This document shows positions 1,883 to 18,599 of a stretch of 44,597 nt of DNA, piece by piece (position 1 is the first letter of the stretch; each line of letters starts with the position of its first letter). A model generated the notes under the pieces. The model did not search any database, had not been told where the DNA came from, and was given only the letters and a program-made list of their open reading frames with translations. A program made the translations under genes and the position numbers. Source of the stretch: a virus. The stretch lies in IMG/VR virus record IMGVR_UViG_3300000970_000003; one strand, 5' to 3'.

Positions 1883-3322
1883 TCACTTGCTTGTTAACTT
1901 CAGGAGTCTAGAAACAGCGTCGTTGTTCATATAGTTCAGAGCCTGAGTAGAGGCGTCCACTTGGTCATCGTTGGTACCGTTTGGAAAGCTAGTCCATTCC
2001 TTTATAAATCCAGGAGTGAAGTCAGCTGTTCTAGGAAGGTGAACATTCCCGGCTTCTATAATACCAGAGCAGGCGTGAGCCCTTGCTTCTTTTGATTCTG
2101 TTGGGTTTATAGGCAATATTCCAAGCATAGAGTTTTTAAGAGTATCTATAATAGCCGTCCCGTTTGCTTTATCCTCTACAAGCTTAGTCATAGCTTTAGG
2201 CCATTTTCTGCTCATATCGATCATAGCCTGCCTAGACTCTACAAAACCCATCCTTCGTCTAAGCTGGTCTAATAGAAATATATCAGAGCCCTTCTTGCCC
2301 CATACCTGTCCTACAACGAAATCAGAATCCTCTTTCTTTTTAAATGTGAAATCCCAAGACTGGATAAGGGTATCAAAAAACCTAGGAAGGTCTCTTTGAT
2401 CATACATTTTCCACCACTCGGATTTAACTATTCCGCCACCAGCTGTAAAAGGTGACTGTTGGTGAAGGGATGACCAATCTCTAGGACCTGAGTTGATTCG
2501 TATTTTATTTAAAGCTTCTAGGTTGTATCTATAGGGCCAAAGAGCCTCCCCCACCTCGCGTGGATCGTGCGGAGAATCGTGGTTCATTTCTCTGATGGCA
2601 GGAAACTCAATGACCTTCCATTGATCGGCATCTGGATCTGATTCTTGAAGCTCTAAAAGCCTGCCTGCTAAATCAGCTTCATGCCAACGAGTCACTGTGA
2701 GTATTATTGCAGCATCATCGGAGTTTCTTCTTGTGTAGAAGGTCGAGGTATACCAGTTGAATAGAGCGTCCCTGTAGGTAGCAGACTCGGCGTCCTTACG
2801 GTTTTTTATAAAGTCATCAATGATTCCTATATCAAAACCAAAACCCGTCAGCGGCCCGCCTATACCGGAGGATTTATAGCCTCCCCCGTCTTTCATGGCT
2901 ATATCAAAAAAGTTTTCACGCTGTTTGAAGTTTCCAGGGATCAATTTATTAGCATCTAGACGTACGTTCGGAAATAAATCTAGGTAGCTCTGGTCTAGCA
3001 TTATTCGCTGAACGTCTAGGTTCATAGAGTTTGCAAGGTCTGCTGAATAAGAAGACACAATGATATTTCTGGTAGGATCTTGCCCGAAAGCAAATGCCGG
3101 GAATCTTCTAGATACCATTTCAGACTTACCCATACGAGGAGGCATGAAGATCATGAGCCTTTTACACTCACCTCTTAAGACTTCCATTAAAGCCTCGCCC
3201 ATCACTTCATGGTGCCAATTCACCATAAAGTTATCCTTTGTATAGGACGTGAACCCTAGAAGGTTGTTTCTGGCGTTATGGTACTGTAGGCGTGCCTTTG
3301 CTAAGGCTAATTCATAGTCCAT
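1883..3322 (-). CDS. terL: terminase large subunit
   Basis: Walker A-like PPRMGKSE, Walker B-like IGIIDDF, and the C-terminal nuclease motif GTNDDQVDASTQAL. 479 aa, followed by the portal gene. Confidence 0.9.
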   Translation of the reverse strand: MDYELALAKARLQYHNARNNLLGFTSYTKDNFMVNWHHEVMGEALMEVLRGECKRLMIFMPPRMGKSEMVSRRFPAFAFGQDPTRNIIVSSYSADLANSMNLDVQRIMLDQSYLDLFPNVRLDANKLIPGNFKQRENFFDIAMKDGGGYKSSGIGGPLTGFGFDIGIIDDFIKNRKDAESATYRDALFNWYTSTFYTRRNSDDAAIILTVTRWHEADLAGRLLELQESDPDADQWKVIEFPAIREMNHDSPHDPREVGEALWPYRYNLEALNKIRINSGPRDWSSLHQQSPFTAGGGIVKSEWWKMYDQRDLPRFFDTLIQSWDFTFKKKEDSDFVVGQVWGKKGSDIFLLDQLRRRMGFVESRQAMIDMSRKWPKAMTKLVEDKANGTAIIDTLKNSMLGILPINPTESKEARAHACSGIIEAGNVHLPRTADFTPGFIKEWTSFPNGTNDDQVDASTQALNYMNNDAVSRLLKLTSK

Positions 3323-4107: not shown

Positions 4108-4269
4108 ACTCTTCTCCTTTAAAAGCGCGGCACTTTCTCCGCCCGTCAAACCTTAATTGTGTCGCTGCTTTAGGGCTTCGGTTCGGCCCGCAATTACCTC
4201 ACAGCTTTCGGGAGGATCGTTATTGTCATCATCTCCTCAACGCCTTTTAAGACAAAGCGAATTCAAATT

Positions 4270-4476
4270 CTATTTTAATGCACTCCTAACTACGCAGTCT
4301 TTAGCTTCTAAAAGCTTTCTAAGTCCAGCTCTAGCTTCTTCTTCATCAAGCTCACCGTTTTCAACGTCGAAAACTACCTGGGCAGCTATTTTCTCAAAAG
4401 GCTTACTCATCATTTGAAGGTCGTGTGGAAGGTGCTCCCACTTAAAGTATTTCATAAACTTTCTGATATCACTCAT
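4270..4476 (-). CDS. hypothetical protein; small conserved phage protein
   Basis: 68 aa with WEHLPHDLQMMSKPFEKIA...GLRKLLEAKDCVVRSAL, a pattern I recall from small phage proteins of unknown function. Overlaps the next gene in operon fashion. Confidence 0.6.
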   Translation of the reverse strand: MSDIRKFMKYFKWEHLPHDLQMMSKPFEKIAAQVVFDVENGELDEEEARAGLRKLLEAKDCVVRSALK

Positions 4477-4688
4477 GCCAAAAACTCCCCTCTATCCTTT
4501 GTCATTACCTTAAACTTATTCAGCTCCGTCTTAGCGTCTTTAAAGTCACAATCAAGCAAAATACCAACTATCCTTGAAGCCCAGAAGTATTCCATATACG
4601 GCTCACAATACTCTAGGATCTCTCTATCCTTTCTTGTGAACCCTCGGACCTGCAGGTTTACTTCAACCCAATCATCTGCATCGCTCAT
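4473..4688 (-). CDS. hypothetical protein
   Basis: 71-aa ORF with 4-nt overlaps to both neighbours. Confidence 0.55.
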   Translation of the reverse strand: MSDADDWVEVNLQVRGFTRKDREILEYCEPYMEYFWASRIVGILLDCDFKDAKTELNKFKVMTKDRGEFLA

Positions 4689-4900
4689 TTCACTCGGCCC
4701 ATATTTATATCATAGCCATAACCTAGCTTTCTGACCTCGGATTGAACGTAGCTTATAATATAGAAATCAATCTCCTGCTCCGTTTTGCCAAGCTCATGCA
4801 TAGTGCGAGCTACTTTATTAGCTTTAATCATTGCCTCTTTCGCAGTCTTATCTATTTTTCTTCTTATAAAGTAAAACTTCATCCACCTAAAAAAATTCAT
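4685..4900 (-). CDS. hypothetical protein
   Basis: 71-aa basic ORF, overlap-coupled to both neighbours. Confidence 0.55.
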   Translation of the reverse strand: MNFFRWMKFYFIRRKIDKTAKEAMIKANKVARTMHELGKTEQEIDFYIISYVQSEVRKLGYGYDINMGRVK

Positions 4901-5112
4901 AAATATATCTCCACTTCGACGTTTATTTCCATTTGCATATTTATTTTAAAAGGATTTCCACAGGATTCGCACTCGATGACTTCATCCTGAGTGGAATCCC
5001 AATAAGCTCCTACTGATTTTGAGCCGTTACCCTCTTTAAATCCAGCTTCGTAGTGCAGGTATTCATCGCAGTGGGGGCATCTGAAAGGGATCTCAAAAAA
5101 GGCTTTATTCAT
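4897..5112 (-). CDS. zinc-ribbon protein
   Basis: CPHCDEY and CESCGNPF form a four-Cys ribbon. Coupled to its neighbours. Confidence 0.6.
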   Translation of the reverse strand: MNKAFFEIPFRCPHCDEYLHYEAGFKEGNGSKSVGAYWDSTQDEVIECESCGNPFKINMQMEINVEVEIYL

Positions 5113-5410: not shown

Positions 5411-6015
5411 TTAGACTCCTCTATTCTAGTGCTTGAATAAGTAACAGTGTAGTCAGGCTCTACCTCAAATTTAAGATCACATTCATGGCACTCAATTTCT
5501 GTGCTGTTCCCATCGTGGCAATACTCAAAAGAATCAGTAAATTGGTGTTCGCACCAGGGACATACTATGTCGTCTTTAAATTTGTAGTCCCACTCGTCAT
5601 AGTCTTCGTAATTAACCCTAGCCAATGCAGCAGCCTTCTTTTCAGCCATTTCTCTGTCGTGACAAGGGTGGCATTGAGATCCTCCTTTAACTCCAAACAT
5701 CGACCTCTCTTTTACATCATCTCTATTTATCCCGCAGGTTAAGCAGTTGTCGTGTTCCCTGCATACTTTAAATAGAGACCAGCCAACTTCAACGCCTAAG
5801 CACTTAGGGCACTCAAGGTTTTGAACCCATACACCGTCTTCACAATCAACTCGATACCCGTCACGCCTTATAAATGTGAAGTCAGCATTTTTTTCATCTA
5901 TAAATGACCGATCATCGTTTTCTTTTTTTCTAAAGTAGGTTGTTAAACCGCACATTACATAATCCATGTCAGGCTCTAGCCAGGACTCGGTCATCAATAT
6001 TCTTTTTTGCTTCAT
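5407..6015 (-). CDS. cysteine-rich protein with multiple zinc fingers
   Basis: Successive CxxC/CxxH pairs: CPKC, CLTC, CHPCH, CPWCEH and CHECD. Confidence 0.6.
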   Translation of the reverse strand: MKQKRILMTESWLEPDMDYVMCGLTTYFRKKENDDRSFIDEKNADFTFIRRDGYRVDCEDGVWVQNLECPKCLGVEVGWSLFKVCREHDNCLTCGINRDDVKERSMFGVKGGSQCHPCHDREMAEKKAAALARVNYEDYDEWDYKFKDDIVCPWCEHQFTDSFEYCHDGNSTEIECHECDLKFEVEPDYTVTYSSTRIEESK

Positions 6016-7229
6016 ATTGGCTCCTTCGCAACGTGCTTTTCTATAAGGCTGGTTACTTGATCAAATAGCCAGGTTTGTAATCCCCTACTGTGATCTGGGT
6101 AGCCCGTTTTTAGGTGGGCATACTCCTCTATCATTGTAGACACTAAATACTTTGTCCCCATTTCAAAACACCTTTTAGAAATGACCATGCTATTTGTATT
6201 GTGGTCTGCAAAGGCCATTGTACTAGTCCCTAAATCATTTACAGTGCGTATATTGTAAGCTTTTAAGTCTGGGTACACTTTGGATACTATATCCACAGCT
6301 TTTTCTAGCTGCATCTGCTCTACAGGTTCTAACTTCACATCAACTAGATTTCTCTTAGCCTGCTTATTGGTCTCTTTTGAAAAATACTCCACCGCTGACT
6401 TGTTGAATAGCTCGCTGTTGTTTGTAAAAGCCGCCTCTGCTACGGACATGAACTCAGGGCTCGGCTCAAAATCCTCCCACTCTAGGTGGCTGTACGAAAT
6501 ACCACCCTCAAAGCTTTCATCCTTATCTGCTTTTAATAACGAGTCCAAATACACCGGGTCTTTGATCATAGACGTTCTTTTGCCTGCGAATGATTCAGCT
6601 GCGTAAGCCTCTTTTAAGGTTCTATCCTCGGTAAGCTCTTGGCTTTTTATAATGTTGTATGTGAAAAGCGAAGGAGGTTTAAGCTCGTGTATCCGAACAC
6701 CTCGGTAGTACATATAGTTTGAAGGCTTGTCATAAATTTCTATCTCAGGGGTTTTTAGAATAGCATCGTTATGCTTAGGATCGAAAACTATAGAATCTTT
6801 TTTAGTGTACTCCTCTATGAAAGCCTCGCCCTTTACAATGATATAAGTCATCCCCTCTTTAGGTTCGGGCTTCACTGGCAGCACGTTTACTGATCCGCCC
6901 TCGTCTAGCGTGTTACAATAGATTTCACGAAACGCCTGCCACATCTTCCAGTTTTTGCCTAGCTCGGTGGTGTAGGATAGGTCCCTGCCGTTCATCGTGA
7001 TCATATCGAAATCAACACCGCGAACATTATGCTTTCGGGTTTCAAAAAGGTATGTGCTACCCCCGGAATAGATTTCCATTTGCTGTTTTTCTCTAGCTAG
7101 GATTGCTGTGGCATATTTTAAGCCTGTGCCGAAATACCCTATAGCGTCGTTTTTGTTTTTAACTGATACCCCGAAGGCCGTAACCCCTGTGATATCTATC
7201 TCGCCCTTGTTTTCAAAGACTACATACAT
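6012..7229 (-). CDS. hypothetical protein, 405 aa
   Basis: First gene after the 7253-7279 motif. It has an N-terminal GYFGTGLKYA glycine motif and a C-terminal EEYAHLKTGYPDHSRG. No function assigned. Confidence 0.7.
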   Translation of the reverse strand: MYVVFENKGEIDITGVTAFGVSVKNKNDAIGYFGTGLKYATAILAREKQQMEIYSGGSTYLFETRKHNVRGVDFDMITMNGRDLSYTTELGKNWKMWQAFREIYCNTLDEGGSVNVLPVKPEPKEGMTYIIVKGEAFIEEYTKKDSIVFDPKHNDAILKTPEIEIYDKPSNYMYYRGVRIHELKPPSLFTYNIIKSQELTEDRTLKEAYAAESFAGKRTSMIKDPVYLDSLLKADKDESFEGGISYSHLEWEDFEPSPEFMSVAEAAFTNNSELFNKSAVEYFSKETNKQAKRNLVDVKLEPVEQMQLEKAVDIVSKVYPDLKAYNIRTVNDLGTSTMAFADHNTNSMVISKRCFEMGTKYLVSTMIEEYAHLKTGYPDHSRGLQTWLFDQVTSLIEKHVAKEPI

Positions 7230-7252
7230 CTCTACCCCTCATATTGCTCGTT

Positions 7253-7279
7253 TAGGTATATACTCCGGTATATATAATA
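7253..7279 (-). promoter_or_regulatory. bipartite palindromic motif (GGTATATACT-cc-GGTATATATA on the plus strand); candidate promoter or operator
   Basis: One of six related intergenic copies. It sits 25 nt upstream of the 405-aa gene start. Confidence 0.5.
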
Positions 7280-7298: not shown

Positions 7299-7469
7299 TT
7301 ACTGCTTTTTAGCCGCATCTTTTAGCAGACGTCCAATATTTACTTGGGTCTGAATTGTGCTTGCAATAGCCGAGGCGCATTTTATGGCCTGCTCTATTCT
7401 ATGGTGCTCAGGTCGAACCCCACCGGATTCTGCTCTATCCATGTCGTTATCAGATACCGCAGTTTTCAT
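7299..7469 (-). CDS. hypothetical protein; short form of the 138-aa track ORF
   Basis: Only the part after MKTAVSDNDMD lies outside the overlapping 7450..7908 gene. The start is uncertain. Confidence 0.35.
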   Translation of the reverse strand: MKTAVSDNDMDRAESGGVRPEHHRIEQAIKCASAIASTIQTQVNIGRLLKDAAKKQ

Positions 7470-7908
7470 CAGCCTGTTCAACCGCTGCGCTGACTCGCTC
7501 AGCAAATTCATCGATTGATATGCCCCCGTCCGTAAGCTCTTTACAGCTTCTTCTGATGACACGGTCTGGATTTCTTTTGTCTCTACGCTCTCGTTCTTTT
7601 CTGGCATTCTCTTCCCTATCCCTACTATACAGTTCCCTGGAGTAAGCTCTTTGTCGTTCTCGGTTTTGTCGTGACCATTCCACTCTTTTCGCATTTTCAA
7701 CTTCCTTGTTGTCATTATAGTATTTGCGATTTCGTTCTCTTTGCAACTCTGGATTTGCCTCGTGCGCTTTCCTTTTAGCTGCCGCTTTCTTTTTTCTGTA
7801 CTCCGGGTCTTCCCATCTTTTTTTGGCTCTAGCCCTATCCGCAGCCTTCTTTTTTTCTATAGACTCAGGACTTCTCCAAGCCCCTGCATACCAAATACGC
7901 TCACTCAT
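7450..7908 (-). CDS. highly basic, charged repeat protein
   Basis: Repeated R/K/E-rich segments such as KRWEDPEYRKKKAAAKRKAHEANPE and RNRKYYNDNKEVENAKRVEW. Start set at MSERIWY, an ATGAGTGA overlap with the upstream stop. Confidence 0.55.
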   Translation of the reverse strand: MSERIWYAGAWRSPESIEKKKAADRARAKKRWEDPEYRKKKAAAKRKAHEANPELQRERNRKYYNDNKEVENAKRVEWSRQNRERQRAYSRELYSRDREENARKERERRDKRNPDRVIRRSCKELTDGGISIDEFAERVSAAVEQADENCGI

Positions 7909-8257
7909 TTTTCGTCTTTCTATACTTCTCTTCGCTAGATTCGCGCCTATCAAAAGGTTTCATCGTTCGTAGTTCAAAAAACCCCTCAAACGTCGGTACA
8001 TGATAGATCAGCAACCGGGCATAAAGGGCTATAAAGTCATTGTTTATTTTAAATATCTTACCATTGGACTCTAGGTCGCGCTCCCAACGTATAGTGTGAA
8101 TAATGGTGACCGCTGAGTATTTAGAATACCCTTTCGTTTTCATTTTACGGGCCATTTGTTTAAATTGTCTGTAGACGTCTGGGTTATCAGCGTGGAAGGT
8201 TTTGAACTTAGCTAGGAGTTTCTTGTCTATATTGTCGAAAATATCCTTAGCTCCCAT
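7901..8257 (-). CDS. hypothetical protein
   Basis: 118-aa ORF in the operon. No motif recognised with confidence. Confidence 0.6.
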   Translation of the reverse strand: MGAKDIFDNIDKKLLAKFKTFHADNPDVYRQFKQMARKMKTKGYSKYSAVTIIHTIRWERDLESNGKIFKINNDFIALYARLLIYHVPTFEGFFELRTMKPFDRRESSEEKYRKTKNE

Positions 8258-8258
8258 T

Positions 8259-8462
8259 CTACTCCTCCCCGTCCGCTTCCATTTCTTCTTCTATAAATTC
8301 TTTTATGTCTTCTATAATAGCAGAGGCGTCTTCTATCTCGCTATATGCTCTTTCAGCTGCGGCTTCAGCTTCGTTTGCTTCATCTACAGCATCAGCGAGC
8401 TGCATTTCAGCGTCAGTAAGCCTAGTTTTAATTTCTTTTAAAATATCATGCAGATCGCTCAT
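8259..8462 (-). CDS. very acidic coiled-coil protein
   Basis: 67 aa, roughly one third D/E by eye (DAVDEANEAEAAAERAYSEIEDA...EEEMEADGEE). ATGA overlap with the upstream RHH gene. Confidence 0.6.
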   Translation of the reverse strand: MSDLHDILKEIKTRLTDAEMQLADAVDEANEAEAAAERAYSEIEDASAIIEDIKEFIEEEMEADGEE

Positions 8463-8626
8463 CCTGCCTTCTCCTTCAGCTTCCCTTTGCTGGCTAGGTG
8501 AACGCCCTCTTGAGCGGCCCTAGAAATGTTGATGTTCTTCTTCTTGGCCTCTAAGTAAACCTCTAAATCAATAGTGATTGAGATTTTCTTTTTTTTGCCA
8601 GTGTCTTCGTGTTTAAAGTCGCTCAT
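8459..8626 (-). CDS. ribbon-helix-helix (CopG/Arc-like) DNA-binding protein, 55 aa (absent from the ORF track)
   Basis: GGAGGACGCT precedes the ATG. The product MSDFKHEDTGKKKKISITIDLEVYLEAKKKNINISRAAQEGVHLASKGKLKEKAG has the beta-strand (ISITID) then helix pattern of RHH proteins. Confidence 0.6.
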   Translation of the reverse strand: MSDFKHEDTGKKKKISITIDLEVYLEAKKKNINISRAAQEGVHLASKGKLKEKAG

Positions 8627-9202: not shown

Positions 9203-9455
9203 AAAGAGCCTCCTCTGCGTATTTCTCTATTGATCTGTATTCTTCTATATCCGCCGCGAGAATGTGGTTTGTGTATTCCTTGTCATCTCTGCCGAATATT
9301 TTAAAATTGAATTCATCCAGGTAGTGCATAGGAACCCCTCGGTTTCCATCCCTGTCCGCTCCGTAGTCGGACTCAAATTCTATATTGCCCTCGGCTATTA
9401 CCTGAACGGTGCCGATACCATCTACCTGCCAAAAAAACTCGGTTTCTATATTCAT
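9180..9455 (-). CDS. hypothetical protein
   Basis: 91-aa ORF in the operon. Confidence 0.55.
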   Translation of the reverse strand: MNIETEFFWQVDGIGTVQVIAEGNIEFESDYGADRDGNRGVPMHYLDEFNFKIFGRDDKEYTNHILAADIEEYRSIEKYAEEALFESYNQG

Positions 9456-9688
9456 GCCGAAAGCCTCTCTTCTTCGTCTTCTAGCTCTATAGCCAGCTCT
9501 TGAATATCGTCTTCTAGGCTATGTATGAGGTCTACTATACCTTCGAGCATTGGCTTTATACGCATGATCGCTACGGTATTGTCGTAATCAAGTTGAGGTA
9601 CGCTCTGCAGGTCTACCAAAGACCTTTCTAAAGCGGATATTGCTGATTCTTTTCTTTTTATTTCGTATTTGATTTGTGTTTTCGTCAT
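9452..9688 (-). CDS. hypothetical coiled-coil protein
   Basis: 78-aa ORF. It is the first gene after the double motif and carries the conserved leader plus a GGAG Shine-Dalgarno. Confidence 0.6.
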   Translation of the reverse strand: MTKTQIKYEIKRKESAISALERSLVDLQSVPQLDYDNTVAIMRIKPMLEGIVDLIHSLEDDIQELAIELEDEEERLSA

Positions 9689-9716
9689 CCCGTTCTCCTT
9701 CGTATTGCTCGTATTG

Positions 9717-9807
9717 GGTATATACTTAGTATATACTACGGTATGTATAAAGTAAAGGAATAAACCAAGACTGTATTATACTGGTATATACTCAGGTATG
9801 TACTATT
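9717..9807 (-). promoter_or_regulatory. two clusters of the palindromic motif (9718-9749 and 9783-9804); candidate promoter or operator
   Basis: Plus strand reads GGTATATACT, AGTATATACT, GGTATGTATA, then GGTATATACT-ca-GGTATGTACT. On the minus strand a perfect TATAAT lies between the clusters (GTATAATACAG). Confidence 0.55.
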
Positions 9808-10306
9808 AGGAAGACTTTTTTTGCTCTTTTTCTGCGATGAAAGCAGCCAGCTCCTCAGGGGTCATTTTGTTTATTTTAGCTGCAAATTCTGTGTCCGGGT
9901 TTAAAGGCATCCCCTCAGCCCCGGTAACTTCTAATTTGCTTGTCTGGCTCCACCCAGCCTGGCAGCTCAGCCAATATTGAGTCATACGCGCACTCTTTCC
10001 AGATGTAGCCATTTTATAAGCAACCCCGGCTACAGCGTTATTAGCGTGGATCTTACCCTTCAGGACCGCCTCACGAAGTCTAGTGTCCTCGCTTAGCCTT
10101 CTAACAAAAGTAGCCCTGCTCATTCCTAAGGCGACCGCCATATCATCTTGTGAGAAACCGAAACCTGAAAGAGTTGATACAGTATTGTAGTCTTTCTCCT
10201 CAATCTTAATTTCATAGCTGCCTTTAGGCCTATGCGGTGGATTCTTAGTAACCTTTTTAGTAGCTTTTTTAGATGTCTTTTTTTTTGCTTTCTTCTTAGT
10301 CGTCAT
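9806..10306 (-). CDS. HTH DNA-binding protein, terminase small-subunit-like
   Basis: Lys-rich N-terminus, HTH-like MAVALGMSRATFVRRL, then KGKIHANNAVAGVAYKMATSGKSARMTQYWL, which resembles phage TerS proteins from memory. Start set at MTTKKK after GAGGA. Confidence 0.45.
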   Translation of the reverse strand: MTTKKKAKKKTSKKATKKVTKNPPHRPKGSYEIKIEEKDYNTVSTLSGFGFSQDDMAVALGMSRATFVRRLSEDTRLREAVLKGKIHANNAVAGVAYKMATSGKSARMTQYWLSCQAGWSQTSKLEVTGAEGMPLNPDTEFAAKINKMTPEELAAFIAEKEQKKSS

Positions 10307-10340
10307 CGTATTCCTCATGCTCATTTTATAACCAAATACA

Positions 10341-10369
10341 CTTATAGTATACACCGGGTATGGGTACTT
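10341..10369 (-). promoter_or_regulatory. degenerate copy of the bipartite motif
   Basis: Plus strand reads TAGTATACAC-cg-GGTATGGGTACT, about 39 nt upstream of the HTH gene start. Confidence 0.35.
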
Positions 10370-10679: not shown

Positions 10680-10855
10680 CGGTCGACTCCTAAAAGAGTG
10701 TTGGATAGCGTAGACAAGGCTGTCTCGGCCCCCTTCCATTATCCGTCCTGGAACTAGAAGCGCGTCCAACTCCTTAATTATTGCGCAGGATACTTTTCAG
10801 CACAAGGTTTTCTAGGTTAGCCTTTCCTCACATCAAAAATAGGAGGATGAGAAAT

Positions 10856-12112
10856 ATGCAAACGATAAAAATTAGATGTGAGTCTGCCCAGACCATACCA
10901 TTTCAAAAGCTAAAGCCTTTCCAGGGGGAGCTTAAATCTCTATCAAAAGAGAATTATGAAAAGCTTAGGGGCTCTATAATTGAGTACGGCTTCACAAGTC
11001 CCATGAATGTCTGGAGAGAGTCCGATGATAACTGGTATACACTAGACGGCCACCAACGCTGCAGGGTTTTAGAAAAAATGGGAGAAGAGGGGTTTAATAT
11101 CCCAGAGATTCCGGTTTCATTTATTCACGCTGAATCGATAGATGAGGCAAAAAGGATCCTAATCACTCACGCATCTCAATACGGTAAAGTTGAGAAACAA
11201 GGCTTATATGAGTTTGCTATAGAAAACGGCATAGAGCCTGATGAGTTATTTAGTATTGCTCACTTTCCAGAAATCAACGCCGAGGCTTTTAAAACAGAAT
11301 TTTTTATAGACCACGACACCAACGCAGCAAAAGAGGAGATTGAAGACGATATCCCTACGGTATCAGACACTCGAGCGAAGATGGGCGATATATGGCAGCT
11401 AGGAGACCACAGGGTTATGTGTGGGGACGCCACGGACGTTGCTATGGTAGAAGAGCTCATGAATGGAGAGAAGGCAGCCCTATGCCTTACAGACCCTCCC
11501 TATAATGTAGATTATGAAGGCAAAACCAAAGATGCCCTAAAAATTGAAAACGACAAAAAAGAAGACAGTCAGTTTTTTGATTTCTTGCGCGACTCTTTCG
11601 TTAACTATTTCACGGTTATGCACACAGGCGCTCCTATTTACATCTTCCACGCAGATTCTGAAGGCTACAACTTTAGGGGAGCTATGAAAGAGGCGGGATT
11701 TAAAATGGCTCAATGCCTTATTTGGGTTAAAAACCAAATGGTAATGGGTCGTCAAGACTATCACTGGAAACACGAGCCTATCCTCTACGGATGGAAAGAA
11801 GGATCAGCCCATTCTTGGCATACGGATAGAAAACAGACTACGGTCTGGGAGTTTGACAGGCCTCAAAGGAACGCTGAGCACCCTACAATGAAGCCTATTC
11901 ATTTACTGGAATATCCAATCGGAAACTCTAGCTCGGTAGGATCTCTTGTGATTGATTTTTTTGGAGGCTCTGGATCTACATTGATCGCTTGTGAAAAGCT
12001 GAATAGAAAATGTTATACGATGGAGCTCGATCCTAGATACGTTGATGTAATATTGGCCAGATATGAGAAGTACGCTGATAAAGAGGCTGTGCTTTTAAAT
12101 CCTGAAGGCTAG
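10856..12112 (+). CDS. ParB/Srx-like N-terminal domain fused to a beta-class N6-adenine (or N4-cytosine) DNA methyltransferase
   Basis: ParB-type LDGHQRCR; methyltransferase motif IV LTDPPYN precedes motif I DFFGGSGST. Start set at MQTIKI, 9 nt after AGGAGG. This is the only credible plus-strand gene. Confidence 0.85.
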   Translation: MQTIKIRCESAQTIPFQKLKPFQGELKSLSKENYEKLRGSIIEYGFTSPMNVWRESDDNWYTLDGHQRCRVLEKMGEEGFNIPEIPVSFIHAESIDEAKRILITHASQYGKVEKQGLYEFAIENGIEPDELFSIAHFPEINAEAFKTEFFIDHDTNAAKEEIEDDIPTVSDTRAKMGDIWQLGDHRVMCGDATDVAMVEELMNGEKAALCLTDPPYNVDYEGKTKDALKIENDKKEDSQFFDFLRDSFVNYFTVMHTGAPIYIFHADSEGYNFRGAMKEAGFKMAQCLIWVKNQMVMGRQDYHWKHEPILYGWKEGSAHSWHTDRKQTTVWEFDRPQRNAEHPTMKPIHLLEYPIGNSSSVGSLVIDFFGGSGSTLIACEKLNRKCYTMELDPRYVDVILARYEKYADKEAVLLNPEG

Positions 12113-13350: not shown

Positions 13351-13614
13351 TTAGTCACAGATTTCTAGAATACCTCTTAGATTATGTTTTGCACACATAG
13401 ACAGCACAACATGACGAAGGGCTTTAGCCATCACGCCTTGCTTACCGATGACCTTACCTCGATCAGATTTTGCAACGTGTATTTCAAATACATCTAAAAC
13501 TTCAGATTTTGAATGGACGATTTTCACGTCCGATGGGTTGTTAACTAGCGAAAGGACTATTCCTTTGAGAACATCTTGTATTGTTTCCTGAATTTCGGTT
13601 TCCATATTTCTCAT
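13351..13614 (-). CDS. KH-domain RNA-binding protein (KhpA/YlqC-like)
   Basis: 87 aa with LVNNPSDVKI...DRGKVIGKQGVMAKALRHVV. This contains the GxxG loop (GKQG) in the small bacterial KH-protein layout. Confidence 0.65.
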   Translation of the reverse strand: MRNMETEIQETIQDVLKGIVLSLVNNPSDVKIVHSKSEVLDVFEIHVAKSDRGKVIGKQGVMAKALRHVVLSMCAKHNLRGILEICD

Positions 13615-13771
13615 CCCCAGAAAGCTCTACATTAAATACGCTCTCAATCTTTCCTTCCTCATTTACTATAGTAGACATAGTTTTGGTTAGAGCACAAATA
13701 TAAGTGACTACGCATCTACGACCTTCTTGAAGCAAAAATAACTTTTGACCTCTTAGAAATTTTGTTTTCAT
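13541..13771 (-). CDS. small hypothetical protein
   Basis: Start set at MKTKFLRG after GAGGAGAG. The track ORF's N-terminal extension covers the promoter-like motif. The 3' end overlaps the KH gene by 74 nt. Confidence 0.4.
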   Translation of the reverse strand: MKTKFLRGQKLFLLQEGRRCVVTYICALTKTMSTIVNEEGKIESVFNVELSGDEKYGNRNSGNNTRCSQRNSPFAS

Positions 13772-13864
13772 AGCGCTCTCCTCTTTTTGACCATCTGGTT
13801 TTTTGATCGGAGTATTTGTCGAAAGCGTTAAATTCAGGCAGGTTTGAGTGTTCATGTGGTCCTT

Positions 13865-13900
13865 GTAGTATATACTAGAGTATGTATAGGCTGCTGTCAA
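13865..13900 (-). promoter_or_regulatory. bipartite motif plus TTGACA; candidate sigma-70-like promoter
   Basis: Minus strand reads TTGACA-17 nt-TAGTAT within TTGACAGCAGCCTATACATACTCTAGTATATACTA. TAGTATATACTA is a perfect 12-bp palindrome. Confidence 0.5.
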
Positions 13901-14013: not shown

Positions 14014-14637
14014 TTAAAAAGGTGGAGCAAAGTTATCTTGTGGAGGCTCGGAGGCTTTTTGCTTCTCTTCGAAATCCTGCCCGGCTTTTATGATCTTTTC
14101 TACGCTCTCCTTGTGGTGATCGTAAGTGCTTTGATCCATAGCATAATCACCCTGCCCATTTGCTTCACACCAGGCGTTATGCGGAATCCCGTGGCGGGTT
14201 CTGCTAAAAACTACGAAGTGATCCTTGTGGGCCGCTGTGAAAATAGGAGCTGAAGATTGCTGAAGCTGCCAAGCATCACACCTCGCTGTACAAGCGAATC
14301 CGTATGGTCCTGCGTGAGGCTTGTTTTTTTTGTAAGCCGTCGTGAGGCCAGAGCCATCGCATACCGGACAAACCTTGCCTGCAGCTAAATCCGCCTGAGC
14401 TCTTTCCAGCTCCATCAATTTTTTATGCTGGAGTATAGGAATGCCGTATTTGTCAAAATCCTTCATGATAGGCAAGCCACGCTGGTTGAAAATGATCTGG
14501 CTGCAGACGTTGTAAAACTCTTCGTTGTCCAGACCCTCGTAGCGTTTGAAGAGCTCTTTTTGGAATTCCGGCCCTACCTCGCCTTTAAAATTATTTTGAA
14601 TCCTGCCAATGCAATTTTTGAAGTGGGTTATATCCAT
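14014..14637 (-). CDS. replication accessory protein, possibly a helicase-loader-like protein with a zinc finger
   Basis: 207 aa, TAATG-coupled to the initiator gene, with CPVCDGSG. The G39P-like assignment rests on context and weak recollection only. Confidence 0.35.
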   Translation of the reverse strand: MDITHFKNCIGRIQNNFKGEVGPEFQKELFKRYEGLDNEEFYNVCSQIIFNQRGLPIMKDFDKYGIPILQHKKLMELERAQADLAAGKVCPVCDGSGLTTAYKKNKPHAGPYGFACTARCDAWQLQQSSAPIFTAAHKDHFVVFSRTRHGIPHNAWCEANGQGDYAMDQSTYDHHKESVEKIIKAGQDFEEKQKASEPPQDNFAPPF

Positions 14638-15686
14638 TACGCCTCCGGTAACCTATATTTTTCTGCAAGCATTCTCTTTGCTTCCTGTTTTTTTCGTTCT
14701 AGCTCAGTCATGCCATCTTTTTCAGCCTTAATCCTGTCCTCTTCCAAAAGCCTATCCAGCTCTGCAAAATTTTCATGGCTCTTCTGGGCTACCTCTACTT
14801 GCTTGTCAGCCTCGATTACAGCGGTTTGAGTTATCACTCGTCCTGTGTGACTAAAGCCCTCGATTGCCTTAATTTTTAACTCAAATATTTTTAAAGAGTG
14901 GTGACCCCACACGTTGCGCGAGTCAGGCATAGCAAAATAGATTTCAAGTAATTTTTTCAATTTCTCTTCGCTAAAATCTTTTAAAAGCCTCTTTATCCCG
15001 CCTCTATCAGATCCGGTCGGAGTTGGAGATTTATTTTCAGGACCGCCGTAATGCATACCCCAGAGCTCGCAATATTTGGCTATACAGCGGGAGACAGCAG
15101 TTCCCTTGGATTTATCCTCAGATTTTTTAACGGGAGAGGTAGGGTTTTCTGCCACAACCAATTTTGCCTCTTCTTCAGGCTTAGGATTAGAAGGAGGATT
15201 AACCACAGCTATCGAACGCTTTTTAGCGGTCGATGAATTTACTTTCTTTTTTACTTTACTTTCATTTACTTTACTTTCCTTTGTGGCCGTGTTTCTGACT
15301 GTTTGTACTGTAAGTATTTGTTTTTGTTGAAGACTGATTATGGCACTCCATACGCACTTACGTTGCAGTCCCATAGCACTATGTAGGCGCTTGATAGTCA
15401 CTCGAATAGCACTTGGTAGGCACTCGGTAGTCACCTCCCCCTCACTCGATACTCTCTCGATAGTCTGAGAGATGTCTTGCCGAGGGAATTCATATAAAAA
15501 GTAGATGAAAACAATCTTCTCCATGCTGGATAAAGAAGCAAAAATATGATCAGAAAATAAATCAGTTTTAGTAAGATGGTAATGAAATTTGAGCTTTTTA
15601 TTTTTAGCTACATCTCGTCTGTAGTAGTTTTTTAAATCGATTATTTCTATATCAATTACATCGTCTTCATGGATATCTGTATACAT
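14637..15686 (-). CDS. putative replication initiator protein
   Basis: 349 aa with an N-terminal winged-helix-like region, a low-complexity K/S/P linker and a C-terminal domain. The gene contains an iteron array and AT-rich repeats. Confidence 0.55.
   Translation of the reverse strand: MYTDIHEDDVIDIEIIDLKNYYRRDVAKNKKLKFHYHLTKTDLFSDHIFASLSSMEKIVFIYFLYEFPRQDISQTIERVSSEGEVTTECLPSAIRVTIKRLHSAMGLQRKCVWSAIISLQQKQILTVQTVRNTATKESKVNESKVKKKVNSSTAKKRSIAVVNPPSNPKPEEEAKLVVAENPTSPVKKSEDKSKGTAVSRCIAKYCELWGMHYGGPENKSPTPTGSDRGGIKRLLKDFSEEKLKKLLEIYFAMPDSRNVWGHHSLKIFELKIKAIEGFSHTGRVITQTAVIEADKQVEVAQKSHENFAELDRLLEEDRIKAEKDGMTELERKKQEAKRMLAEKYRLPEA
15237..15285. repeat. AT-rich tandem repeats (TTTACTTTACTTTC x2 plus a partial copy); candidate DNA unwinding element
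   Basis: Read directly: tttactttcttttttactttactttcatttactttactttcc, inside the linker-coding part of the initiator gene. Confidence 0.5.
15340..15471. repeat. about 9-12 tandem 11-bp iterons (plus-strand consensus TAGNCACTNNN); candidate origin of replication
   Basis: Successive 11-mers are atggcactcca, tacgcacttac, gttgcagtccc, atagcactatg, taggcgcttga, tagtcactcga, atagcacttgg, taggcactcgg, tagtcacctcc, ccctcactcga, tactctctcga, tagtctgagag. An 11-bp period cannot come from an amino-acid repeat. Confidence 0.65.
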
Positions 15687-16467: not shown

Positions 16468-17351
16468 CACGCACACCTCATATAGTTTCTAAGGTCATCA
16501 GCGTCTTCTTTCTCGATCATATTGCAGAGTATTTCGTATTGGCTCATTGTAAGCTTTTTAGTTGAGTCCAAATTAAAGTGGCAAAGCAAAAGCTCTCTAG
16601 CCTCATCCTGAGTTAGATCCGAAGCCCCTATGATTGTAAAAAGCCTTTTTATTTGATCCTGAGAAACGGGAGCGTGGTTCATACGCTCTTCTTCTTTTGG
16701 ATATGTTTTAGCAGGCTTTTCTGGTTCAGCGTCCGGTTGTGGGGGAGCGTCTTGATCCGTTGTAGTTGTTCTCTCTACAGGCTTCGTGTCTTTTACATCT
16801 CTAGGCTCATCATCCTCATTCAGGATTTCATTCATATCGCCCATTTCAGTAAAAGGAGTTTTAAAGCTAACCTCTTTCATAGTGTCCAGCTCGGTTTCAT
16901 CTGTAATAGCTAGTCCGCATATAGAAAGCGTAACCCTTCTTTTTGCCTTGGTTTCACACTTCATTATAGCGTTTGCCAAGTTTGCACCGCTCATACCCTT
17001 ACAAGGCACTACAGCTATAGACTCGTCTGTTCTACCGTTTGGCATAGTAGCTAGGGCAGTGAAGGTTATAAGGCCAGCGTCGGTGTCTATACTCTTCTCT
17101 GTAACCTTTACCGAAACACCCCATACTTTTCTAAGCTGATCCGTACAGCTTTTATTAGCATATAAGACTAGCTTCCCCTGCATTCTGATAAAATCAAAAG
17201 GCTTTGAAATGTGGCTTATTTTTAGCTGATCACATAAAGCTATTTGAAACTTTCCAGCTTCAGCCTCGGTCAACTTACTATAGTCGCCAGCAAGTATTTT
17301 GTTTTCAATCTCTTCGCTCAACGCTGGGAGATTGTCTCTCATCTCATTCAT
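16467..17351 (-). CDS. single-strand annealing protein (Rad52/Erf/RecT-superfamily recombinase)
   Basis: AIMKCETKAKRRVTLSICGL resembles the conserved C-terminal core motif of phage annealases such as Erf. It is paired with an upstream exonuclease and has an acidic C-terminal tail. Confidence 0.6.
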   Translation of the reverse strand: MNEMRDNLPALSEEIENKILAGDYSKLTEAEAGKFQIALCDQLKISHISKPFDFIRMQGKLVLYANKSCTDQLRKVWGVSVKVTEKSIDTDAGLITFTALATMPNGRTDESIAVVPCKGMSGANLANAIMKCETKAKRRVTLSICGLAITDETELDTMKEVSFKTPFTEMGDMNEILNEDDEPRDVKDTKPVERTTTTDQDAPPQPDAEPEKPAKTYPKEEERMNHAPVSQDQIKRLFTIIGASDLTQDEARELLLCHFNLDSTKKLTMSQYEILCNMIEKEDADDLRNYMRCA

Positions 17352-18210
17352 TATCGTCCTCCTTTGGCTTCATCCAGTGGTATGGAATAGCCTCTATAAT
17401 TTTCTCTTCATATCCAGGCCACACGCCTGTCTCTTTGCATTTTTTGTAAGTCTCCAGCAGAGGCATATACTTAGGCCTTCCACACTCTGAGTAAAAATCA
17501 TCGTGCAGCTGGAATTGATTAGGGCAATAAGGAGGTTCTTTTTCTTGAGCTAAAATCATAAAACCCCTCATGTGCTCACCCGTTGCTGAAAATATTGTAT
17601 GGGCATAAAAATCAGCTTGAACGTCATAGTCAAAATTTGAAATAGATTTTATAAATGATTCTTTAGAGGCGTCAGCTGTTGTCTTATAATCCCAGAAAAA
17701 CATTTTTTTATAGTTGCACCAGTCTAACCTACACTTAGTTTTCACTCCGTTGATTTCACCAAAAAAAGTTATTTCAGGCTCTCCTGATTTTGTAAGAGCT
17801 TGGTAGTAGCTATGCTCCCGGATAACCCTGGTCATCGCTATAGCCTCGCGCCAATCCTTACGCTTCATTATGATTTTGCCTTCGTGCTTTTCGGCGTGTT
17901 CTTTATGCTTTGCTTTTCCAGCCTTTGATTGCTTGCTTACCCCGTGCAGCTCCCTAGCGTAGAGCTCGAAAACTAGGTGGGGCTCTAACACAAAGGTGTG
18001 TAAAAAGTTACCAAAAATTAAGGAATCGGTGGGGTCTTTAGGGTTTTCTAGCGCATATTTAAAATGTGCCGGGCTCTTGCGCATCTTCATGAGCTGTGAG
18101 CGTCCAATGTATTCTGTTATTTCGTGGTAAACATCGTTAGGGACATTTCGGTATGCCCCTTTAGGTATGCCCGTCTCTAGTAGAGAAGGGTCCCATTCTT
18201 TTATTTTCAT
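17344..18210 (-). CDS. PD-(D/E)xK exonuclease (RecE/YqaJ/Cas4-like)
   Basis: RLDWCNYKKMFFWDYKT gives D...D-x-K, followed by QADFYAH (the QxxxY motif). Confidence 0.7.
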   Translation of the reverse strand: MKIKEWDPSLLETGIPKGAYRNVPNDVYHEITEYIGRSQLMKMRKSPAHFKYALENPKDPTDSLIFGNFLHTFVLEPHLVFELYARELHGVSKQSKAGKAKHKEHAEKHEGKIIMKRKDWREAIAMTRVIREHSYYQALTKSGEPEITFFGEINGVKTKCRLDWCNYKKMFFWDYKTTADASKESFIKSISNFDYDVQADFYAHTIFSATGEHMRGFMILAQEKEPPYCPNQFQLHDDFYSECGRPKYMPLLETYKKCKETGVWPGYEEKIIEAIPYHWMKPKEDDNE

Positions 18211-18238
18211 TCCAGATCCTTGTTCGTATTACTCGTTG

Positions 18239-18260
18239 GTAGGGATATGGTATATACTTA
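18239..18260 (-). promoter_or_regulatory. palindromic motif copy (GGTATATACT at 18249-18258)
   Basis: It overlaps the stop of the last late gene and sits 38 nt upstream of the exonuclease start. The conserved leader follows. Confidence 0.5.
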
Positions 18261-18599
18261 GCAAAGACTCTCTTCGACGGTCAACGCCTCTTCGATGATG
18301 TCAGCTTCAAAATCGCCTCCGGTAGGACCGACCTCAACTTGAATTGACTGATCTTCACCCACTACTAAGCCTGATGATTTAGCAGAAGGGATCGTCCCGG
18401 TAACCTTTCCTTTCACAGCGTCCGCAATAGTAAGCTCTCCTGCTGAAGAAGTAAGCTCAACAGGTGCCGTAGCTCCAGGCAAACATACTTTCACTTCAAG
18501 GCCTGTTAGGTCGTAGGCGTCATCCCCTTTTCTAATTGTAAGATCGAAATCCTTTTTTTTGCCTAAAATAATATTTATCTTTTCATTTTCGCAGGCCAT
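18258..18599 (-). CDS. Ig-like (BppU_N-like) structural protein
   Basis: 113-aa beta-rich ORF with DFDLTIRKGDDAYDLTGLEVKV and KGKVTGTIP, a pattern typical of Ig-like phage domains. Confidence 0.4.
   Translation of the reverse strand: MACENEKINIILGKKKDFDLTIRKGDDAYDLTGLEVKVCLPGATAPVELTSSAGELTIADAVKGKVTGTIPSAKSSGLVVGEDQSIQVEVGPTGGDFEADIIEEALTVEESLC

Follow-up and report, generated by a model that had tools for sequence, protein, structure and literature searches.

A palindromic motif repeated in front of early and middle operons of a tailed phage: a predicted operator array for a toxin-less CcdA-type repressor

The DNA analysed here, referred to as the window, is a stretch of 44,597 nucleotides from the IMG/VR virus record IMGVR_UViG_3300000970_000003. 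This 44.6-kb window looks like a complete genome of a tailed phage. Genes for terminase, portal, sheath, baseplate, tape-measure and fibre proteins make up its structural side, and are followed by genes for RecE/RecT-like proteins, an O-like initiator, and KH, HNH and resolvase proteins. Nearly all genes lie on the minus strand, the exception being a ParB-N/DNA-methylase gene on the plus strand, and the gene map leaves only few and short non-coding spacers. Some of these spacers carry the element in question, a short palindromic unit that stands singly or in arrays in front of early and middle gene blocks. It is considered together with its predicted binder, a small ribbon-helix-helix (RHH) protein of the CcdA family that is encoded in the same genome.

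Palindromic units before early and middle gene blocks

The core of the unit is the 8-bp palindrome GTATATAC, which also occurs in the variants GTATGTAT and GTATGTAC, and the core centres of adjacent units are 11-12 bp apart. Exact copies of GTATATAC start at positions 7256, 9718, 9729, 9784, 13868 and 18250. Dinucleotide shuffles of the sequence contained 0.44 ± 0.57 copies, and none of 100 shuffles reached six. All six copies fall between genes, in the region from 7 to 18 kb, and each lies 12-95 nt 5' of the first gene of a minus-strand block. The full bipartite pattern RGTATATACTNNRGTATGTAYW was found four times (0.00 expected), at 7255-7276 (with one mismatch), 9728-9749, 9783-9804 and 13867-13888, always on the plus strand, and the same four copies formed the top family in an unbiased repeat finder. 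Read on the minus strand, the direction of transcription, a site has the form [TAYATACY]-NN-[AGTATATACY], with the imperfect unit always on the side away from the gene. At 9727-9738 and 13866-13877 the palindrome extends to the 12-bp TAGTATATACTA. Because six exact copies stand against 0.44 expected, and all of them fall into non-coding spacers, chance is excluded: the motif is a real, non-random cis-regulatory motif. An initial annotation of this DNA had described the bipartite motif, its uniform orientation and the 12-bp palindrome, and all three hold up under these counts. Its distance of 25-95 nt to the first gene has to be widened to 12-95 nt, whereas the upstream position as such is correct.

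A weight matrix was built from ten phage units. At a threshold of 12.9, only seven of its own ten source unit positions were recovered from the whole window. Lowering the threshold to 11.5 added a single match, at 11033, inside the plus-strand methyltransferase ORF (open reading frame). No match of at least 11.5 was found in the structural half, where two weaker ones score 10-11.5. 

Six sites, S1 to S6, were distinguished, all serving minus-strand genes. S1 (7255-7276) consists of two units, TATATATACC-GG-AGTATATACC, with centres 12 bp apart. It lies 26 nt 5' of the ATG of the gene 6012-7229 and would serve the gene of a 405-aa protein together with those that lead on to the large terminase. 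S2 (9717-9749) comprises three units, TATACATACC-GT-AGTATATACT-A-AGTATATACC, whose centres are separated by 12 and 11 bp; its cores at 9718, 9729 and 9741 are the three units that had been reported for 9718-9749. This site is overlapped by the hexamer pair TTTACT-17-TATACT and lies 29 nt 5' of the gene 9452-9688, the first in the operon that contains the RHH gene. S3 (9773-9804) also has three units, GTACATACC-TG-AGTATATACC followed by the variant AGTATAATAC (9782-9773, minus strand), in which a perfect TATAAT is found at 9780-9775. Only the first two of these, at 9783-9804, had been listed before. S3 and S2 together bring six units onto a stretch of about 85 bp in the 117-nt spacer 9689-9805, which precedes the operon running from 9688 to 7299, an operon of small proteins including the RHH protein.

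S4 (13867-13888, with a TTGACA extending it to 13900) has two units, TATACATACT-CT-AGTATATACT, and lies 12 nt 5' of the ATG at 13855, the start of the KH/HNH/resolvase block. Its TTGACA (13900-13895) is 5' of the units and forms, with a TAGTAT at the previously noted distance of 17 nt, the best sigma-70-like pair (TTGACA-17-TAGTAT, 13900-13872), the spacer and -10 of which lie inside the two units. At S5 (18249-18258, extended to 18284) we could confirm a single unit, AGTATATACC, which overlaps the stop codon of the ORF 18258-18599; the position of a second unit has decayed within this upstream ORF. A TTGACC (18284-18279) is located 18-19 nt upstream of the unit, and the RecE-like gene 17344-18210, the first of the RecE/RecT/replication block, follows at a distance of 39 nt. 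S6 (10346-10367) is the degenerate site noted before near 10346. It has two units, on the plus strand GTATACAC (10347-10354) and GGTATGGG (10357-10364), 11 bp apart, with a TGGACA-18-TAAAGT pair just upstream, and lies 40 nt 5' of the ATG at 10306 of a small-terminase-like helix-turn-helix (HTH) gene.

As had been noted initially, the sites stand where early and middle gene blocks begin, and -10-like sequences overlap with them. Sigma-70-like hexamer pairs were detected at S2, S4 and S6; at S3 and S5 they were recognised by eye. One explanation would be that the motif is only a shared early/middle promoter read by the host RNA polymerase, perhaps with a preference for a TATAC-type -10, and that no repressor is involved. 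This would agree with the position of all sites upstream of gene blocks in one orientation, with the -10-like TAGTAT and TATACT within units and the TATAAT that ends S3, with the good -35 boxes at S4 and S5, and with the many bacterial arrays (see below) that abut TTGACA. Nevertheless, we consider it unlikely. Conserved palindromes at helical pitch are not required by sigma recognition, which is asymmetric, unlike the palindromic units. The -35/-10 register relative to the units varies from site to site, with offsets that differ by at least 5 nt among S2, S3, S4 and S6, and no sigma-70 promoter in fixed register with the conserved sequence was found. Most units read TATACC on the transcribed strand, without the key T at -7, and a sigma-70 promoter scan gave 19 matches compared to 30.9 in shuffles, i.e., fewer than expected.

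The phage-specific promoter class that had been proposed fares no better, given the palindromic units and the varying register; about 60 ORFs scanned with PHROGs or Pfam included neither a phage RNA polymerase nor a phage sigma factor, and the motif could not be assigned to a promoter class of either kind. Since palindromic blocks repeated at helical pitch are the signature of a dimeric protein whose neighbouring copies bind along the same face of the DNA, the motif fits a dimer-binding operator laid over promoters rather than a promoter class of its own. The simplest reading is that of host-type promoters with predicted operator units over the region from -35 to +1.

Downstream of three sites, a conserved leader was observed on the minus strand between the units and the start codon: ACGAGCAATATGA at 7239-7251 (S1), ACGAGCAATACGA at 9700-9712 (S2), where it is part of a tandem CAATACGAG/CAATACGAAG, and ACGAGTAATACGA at 18224-18236 (S5). 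At all three, the consensus, ACGAGYAATAYGA, precedes the first gene with its start codon 22-26 nt away, and a weaker copy is present at 10306-10318 (minus strand). Its position is fixed to the start codon, not to the operator units. The leader core AATACGA occurs 17 times compared to 5 expected, 15 of these on the minus strand. The leader could be a translation or RNA-stability signal, or the target of the KH-domain protein of the phage.

The CcdA-family protein and the ccd operators

The predicted binder is a protein of 55 aa, encoded at 8459-8626 on the minus strand behind a strong ribosome-binding site (GGGAGGA). It belongs to the family PF07362, with 26.2 bits against a curated cutoff of 22.4, residues 12-45 aligning to profile positions 1-34. 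BLASTP aligned it to residues 2-25 of F CcdA with 38% identity over 24 aa (E 3e-5; segments KKKISITIDLEVYLEAKKKNINIS and KQRITVTVDSDSYQLLKAYDVNIS, respectively). On a hidden Markov model (HMM) of six CcdA N-domains, from which the phage protein had been excluded, it reached 37 bits, compared to 2-4 bits on RelB and MazE HMMs. When 72,556 plasmids were searched by tblastn, only two gave a match, and both matches are annotated as CcdA-family antitoxins. No homologue sharing 5-mers was found in 5.8 billion proteins, and none in the PDB or in phage records. The predicted structure consists of a beta-strand, KKKISITID, followed by two helices. A monomer model (pLDDT 73.6) is extended at its N-terminus and forms helices over residues 21-30 and 34-45. 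Besides the RHH protein, no other recognisable transcription regulator was found in the scans of the phage.

The CcdB-binding C-terminal domain is absent from this protein, which ends at residue 55; an alignment with three CcdAs stops at the RHH domain. There is no ccdB gene downstream, and neither CcdB nor another toxin family was detected in Pfam, NCBIfam and PADLOC scans. Having neither the CcdB-binding half nor a CcdB gene, the protein is a member of the DNA-binding domain family and not a ccdAB antitoxin. A 67-aa, very acidic helical ORF (8259-8462, minus strand) is translationally coupled to the RHH gene, with a start codon that overlaps the stop codon of the latter (ATGA), a layout that resembles a toxin-antitoxin pair. 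Searches for toxin, defence and anti-defence families gave no match for the ORF, the product of which might bridge RHH dimers as a partner protein or act as a DNA mimic.

The experimentally footprinted operator of the F-plasmid ccd operon contains three central GTATAC palindromes, one of them perfect, among eight imperfect ones with a spacing of about 12 bp, and CcdA dimers bind this operator in the major groove (PMC5389731). The phage-unit matrix was applied to the 140-bp upstream regions of six ccdA genes. For F-type ccdA, the best score was 12.9, and three matches, at -49, -37 and -24, line up in a chain and coincide exactly with the central sites. The Klebsiella gene (its product is 62% identical to F CcdA) scored 16.2 with TGGTATATACTC, which is identical to phage positions 9782-9793 and has a GAATAC on one side and a GTATTC on the other, each centred 12 bp away. 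For Roseivivax ccdA the score was 11.5 (ATACATACC), and the genes of Pantoea, Salmonella (27% identical to F CcdA) and Sulfitobacter gave no match (4.8-5.4). As a background, we used 505 kb of unrelated phage DNA in 7,145 segments of 140 bp: scores of at least 11.5 were reached in 0.8% and of at least 12.9 in 0.11% of the segments, and none reached 16.2. Diverged F-like ccd operators retain sites at -48, -36 and -23, and AGTATGTAT, the second unit type of the phage, is found at the -23 site of Klebsiella ccd operators.

The phage sites thus share with ccd operators several GTATAC-type palindromes about 12 bp apart over a promoter. The likeness to F-plasmid ccdAB extends to the protein family (PF07362), to several dimers along one promoter region (predicted for the phage), and to the word itself, as F has GTATAC, ATATAC and GTATGT and the Klebsiella ccd operator has TGGTATATACTC. 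The residues of the strand that presumably contacts DNA are R/T/T, R/S/T and K/S/S in the CcdAs with matching operators and K/S/T in the phage protein. The CcdAs of Pantoea and Salmonella have no basic residue at that strand position, and CACG-type repeats are found instead, although this sample is small. Several differences separate the two systems. The phage protein has 55 aa and is without CcdB-binding tail or CcdB gene; the phage palindromes are 8 bp long and mostly perfect, those of F 6 bp and imperfect; the phage sites serve five or six operons, those of F one autoregulated toxin-antitoxin pair; and the RHH gene of the phage is 1.1 kb away from the array.

Similar arrays in other genomes and relatives of the phage

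We scanned 185,579 species genomes for GTATATAC-N3-4-GTATATAC-N3-4-GTAT and obtained at least 120 loci (L154-L273) in at least 88 independent groups. Among the matches listed, at least 22 of the 88 groups have a type II toxin-antitoxin gene beside the array. These genes include 8 RelB/DinJ-type RHH loci and 14 of the MazE type, besides Phd, BrnT and MazF, and Pfam confirmed representatives of the array-adjacent antitoxin and toxin genes. Of the 22 RelB- or MazE-like ORFs in the 881 kb fetched around the listed matches, 20 are no more than 100 nt away from an array. The arrays of these operons, GTATATAC-N3-4-GTATATAC-N3-4-GTAT(ATAC), are identical to those of the phage, and often abut a TTGACA and lie no more than 30 nt from the antitoxin start. 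In contrast to the phage, the regulator there is a RelB RHH or an AbrB-like MazE protein, and each array belongs to a single operon with its toxin partner present. Tandem GTATATAC arrays with a pitch of 11-12 bp were thus seen to be widespread in bacteria and archaea, with several antitoxin families. From the ccd comparison and the genome scan together, the operator of an antitoxin-type repressor is the best-supported identity of the motif, and the phage encodes exactly one such protein.

These results also bear on the question of whether the sites could be operators for a different protein. Candidates would be the 166-aa HTH protein (9806-10306), a phage protein that was not recognised, or a RelB-, MazE- or CcdA-type complex of the host or a plasmid. 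The HTH protein has weak Xre-like and Fis-type HTH matches, and its own gene lies behind the degenerate S6; however, it matches the small-terminase family phrog_309 over residues 9-155, nearly its full length. In principle, host antitoxins could recognise the phage sites, given the identical bacterial arrays beside RelB/MazE-type antitoxins. Within the phage, however, no RelB- or MazE-like ORF was recognised, the RHH protein itself scores poorly on the respective HMMs (see above), and the one antitoxin-type DNA-binding domain encoded belongs to the family with the best-matching known operators. We therefore regard a different binder, too, as unlikely. Of the two candidates named in the initial annotation, the HTH protein loses ground through its small-terminase match, whereas the RHH protein gains on computational grounds, namely its CcdA-family match and the likeness of the sites to CcdA operators. 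The small-terminase-like gene (9806-10306, minus strand) is located 6.5 kb from the large-terminase gene (1883-3322, minus strand). Three further known boxes were set aside: the LexA box, the consensus CTG/CAG arms of which are absent here, the NrdR box, and the GntR/HutC-type GTnTAnAC. None of them explains the match to ccd operators or the neighbourhood of antitoxin genes.

Some arrays have other surroundings. Gastranaerophilales (Melainabacteria) bins contain a conserved three-unit array beside a sigma-70 gene (L155, L159, L161, L172, L186, L192, L220, L222, L227, L228, L237, L243, L254, L272). Its other neighbour is a thioredoxin-like gene or an ORF of 713-717 aa, which we take to be polynucleotide phosphorylase. 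As this is not a toxin-antitoxin locus, some other host regulator also uses the word. At many loci, the array is enclosed by a longer shared sequence, GTATATACACGTGTATATACATGTGTATATAC, in many cases followed by ATTAGTATAGCAT (L169, L191, L205, L208, L209, L216, L235, L236, L238, L244, L247, L264-L266). The first six of these loci come from one Patescibacteria bin, FW300_bin.57. This has the appearance of a dispersed repeat element, or of a promoter cassette common to these loci.

A scan of viral contigs with the bipartite pattern gave 94 matches, approximately the estimated chance number, and none of the contigs is related to the phage. A few unrelated viral contigs carry true arrays with a 12-bp pitch. 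One of them (L033) has five AGTATATACT units at 10764-10820, and a contig family (L074, at 4269-4365, L091, L063 and L038) has paired arrays around an AT-rich spacer. The guess that the ORF beside the array of another contig (L052) encodes an RHH protein was not supported.

Relatives of the phage are scarce. A 44,578-bp Logan contig in run SRR2835671 carries the window sequence, and the 405-aa protein was found only in two Logan assemblies, SRR2835671 and SRR2835670. The nearest homologues of this protein are at most 48% identical and lie on mosaic contigs without the motif. A nucleotide search of 50,697 phage records gave no match to the window, near or distant. In IMG/VR, neither the 405-aa protein nor the HTH protein had a close relative, and the RecE-like protein had only relatives with 34-37% identity.

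Several other features of the window were recorded. It contains no tRNA genes, and its largest ORF (748 aa) is among the tail genes. The minus-strand ORFs 7299-7715 and 7450-7953, the latter rich in Arg, Lys and Glu, are read in different frames and have about 265 nt in common; in the public gene call, 7299-7694 is the one gene retained here, and 7695-7900 is unassigned. A 19-nt stretch with 95% identity is present at 10845-10863 (plus strand) and 13598-13616 (minus strand), where it spans the ribosome-binding site and the first codons of two unrelated genes on opposite strands, ParB-N/methylase and a KhpA-like KH gene, whose products both begin with MRNM(Q/E)T. Four consecutive ORFs of about 70 aa (4270-5112) had the look of tandem paralogues but turned out not to be paralogues.

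Predicted operator function and its meaning

We read the motif as the predicted operator array for a toxin-less RHH repressor of the CcdA type, laid over host-type promoters of five or six early and middle operons, and assign this reading a probability of about 0.68. From the sequence comparisons we infer that the RHH protein binds the sites, that repression is the effect, and where transcripts would start. Each 8-bp palindrome would take one RHH dimer, with the two-stranded beta-ribbon of the dimer (KKKISITID) in the major groove. A unit pitch of 11-12 bp would bring neighbouring dimers onto one face of the helix, so that cooperative binding is possible. Together, the dimers would cover 10-34 bp across -35 to +1 and thereby block RNA polymerase. 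Early and middle transcription would begin, the RHH protein would accumulate, and its own operon and four others would then be turned down. Because the RHH gene lies in the operon of the largest array (S3 and S2), this would constitute a negative-feedback circuit. The predicted targets of the shut-off are the RecE/RecT/replication block (S5), the KH/HNH/resolvase block (S4), the small-terminase-like gene (S6), the small-protein operon (S3 and S2) and the gene of the 405-aa protein (S1).

Comparable arrangements are known. The Omega repressor of plasmid pSM19035 (inc18) is a small RHH dimer that binds tandem arrays of short repeats and cooperatively represses several operons including its own. 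Omega is of a different RHH family, is plasmid-encoded, and uses abutting 7-bp heptads in direct or inverted orientation, whereas the phage has 8-bp palindromes one turn apart. Arc and Mnt of phage P22 are RHH repressors that bind as a dimer of dimers to promoter-overlapping operators, with the Arc half-site centres about 11 bp apart. Each of them has a single operator in the immI region rather than a genome-wide set, and the sequences are unrelated. In the Aca-type control of anti-defence genes, a shared promoter-operator precedes many early genes, which are shut off by a small co-expressed regulator (PMC11065993). The regulators there are winged-helix-turn-helix (wHTH) or HTH proteins, and the promoters archaeal (PMC11065993), as opposed to the RHH protein predicted for the phage.

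Several observations weigh against this interpretation. On its own, F CcdA has little affinity and specificity for its sites, and CcdB is needed to bridge its dimers (PMC5389731); as the phage protein has neither a toxin-binding tail nor CcdB, any gain in affinity would need another explanation. Half of the ccdA upstream regions (three of six) fail to match the phage matrix. Among the matches listed in the genome scan, no CcdA-type antitoxin was found beside an array. This is partly expected, as real ccd units are imperfect and are missed by the strict pattern, but since the array-adjacent antitoxins are RelB and MazE, the DNA word is not diagnostic of one family. The array-bearing viral contigs, too, had no CcdA-like ORF in the flanks fetched. 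The RHH gene is located 1.1 kb inside its operon with no adjacent array. Foldseek searches with the monomer model returned several RHH proteins (CopG, Arc, CdbA and AtaR) among the matches, but all matches had E values of at least 2 and were thus not significant. Finally, no related phage that could support the motif by comparative footprinting was found in the collections searched.

It is very improbable that the sites have no transcriptional role and are replication iterons, packaging or recombination sites, or functionless recent duplications: the tandem 11-12-bp direct repeats do resemble iterons, and the leader shared by S1, S2 and S5 shows that whole promoter-leader modules were copied, but the sites do not form one cluster and are scattered over six intergenic locations, the O-like initiator gene (14637-15686) has none within it or beside it, the excess of exact copies in non-coding spacers is as given above, and the flanks differ outside the units, which indicates that the palindromes are selectively conserved.

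Most likely, the predicted operator array represents a familiar kind of gene switch, and what is new is the setting, a toxin-less CcdA-type domain over several phage operons. If this is true, an otherwise orphan phage would have a compact, fully specified circuit in which a single 55-aa repressor acts through about 13 sites on five or six promoters, and the DNA-binding domain of an antitoxin would work toxin-free as a regulator of several operons. This would bear on how CcdA-type proteins can gain affinity without a toxin that bridges the dimers. The motif marks early and middle transcription units and would, in that case, provide a portable set of promoter, operator and repressor.

A more far-reaching idea, which we consider unlikely, is that a virulent-looking phage adopted the DNA-binding half of CcdA together with its operator grammar as a master timer of early genes. 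As the same GTATATAC arrays are found at RelB-, MazE- and CcdA-type modules, cross-talk between phage and host would be possible. If so, resident toxin-antitoxin complexes might silence the early promoters of the phage and act in defence; conversely, the phage RHH protein or its many sites might unbalance the autoregulation of host toxin-antitoxin systems, as a counter-defence or as a trigger. The recurrence of the array beside RelB, MazE and CcdA genes in very distant bacteria may be relevant to toxin-antitoxin regulation as well as to interference between phage and host.

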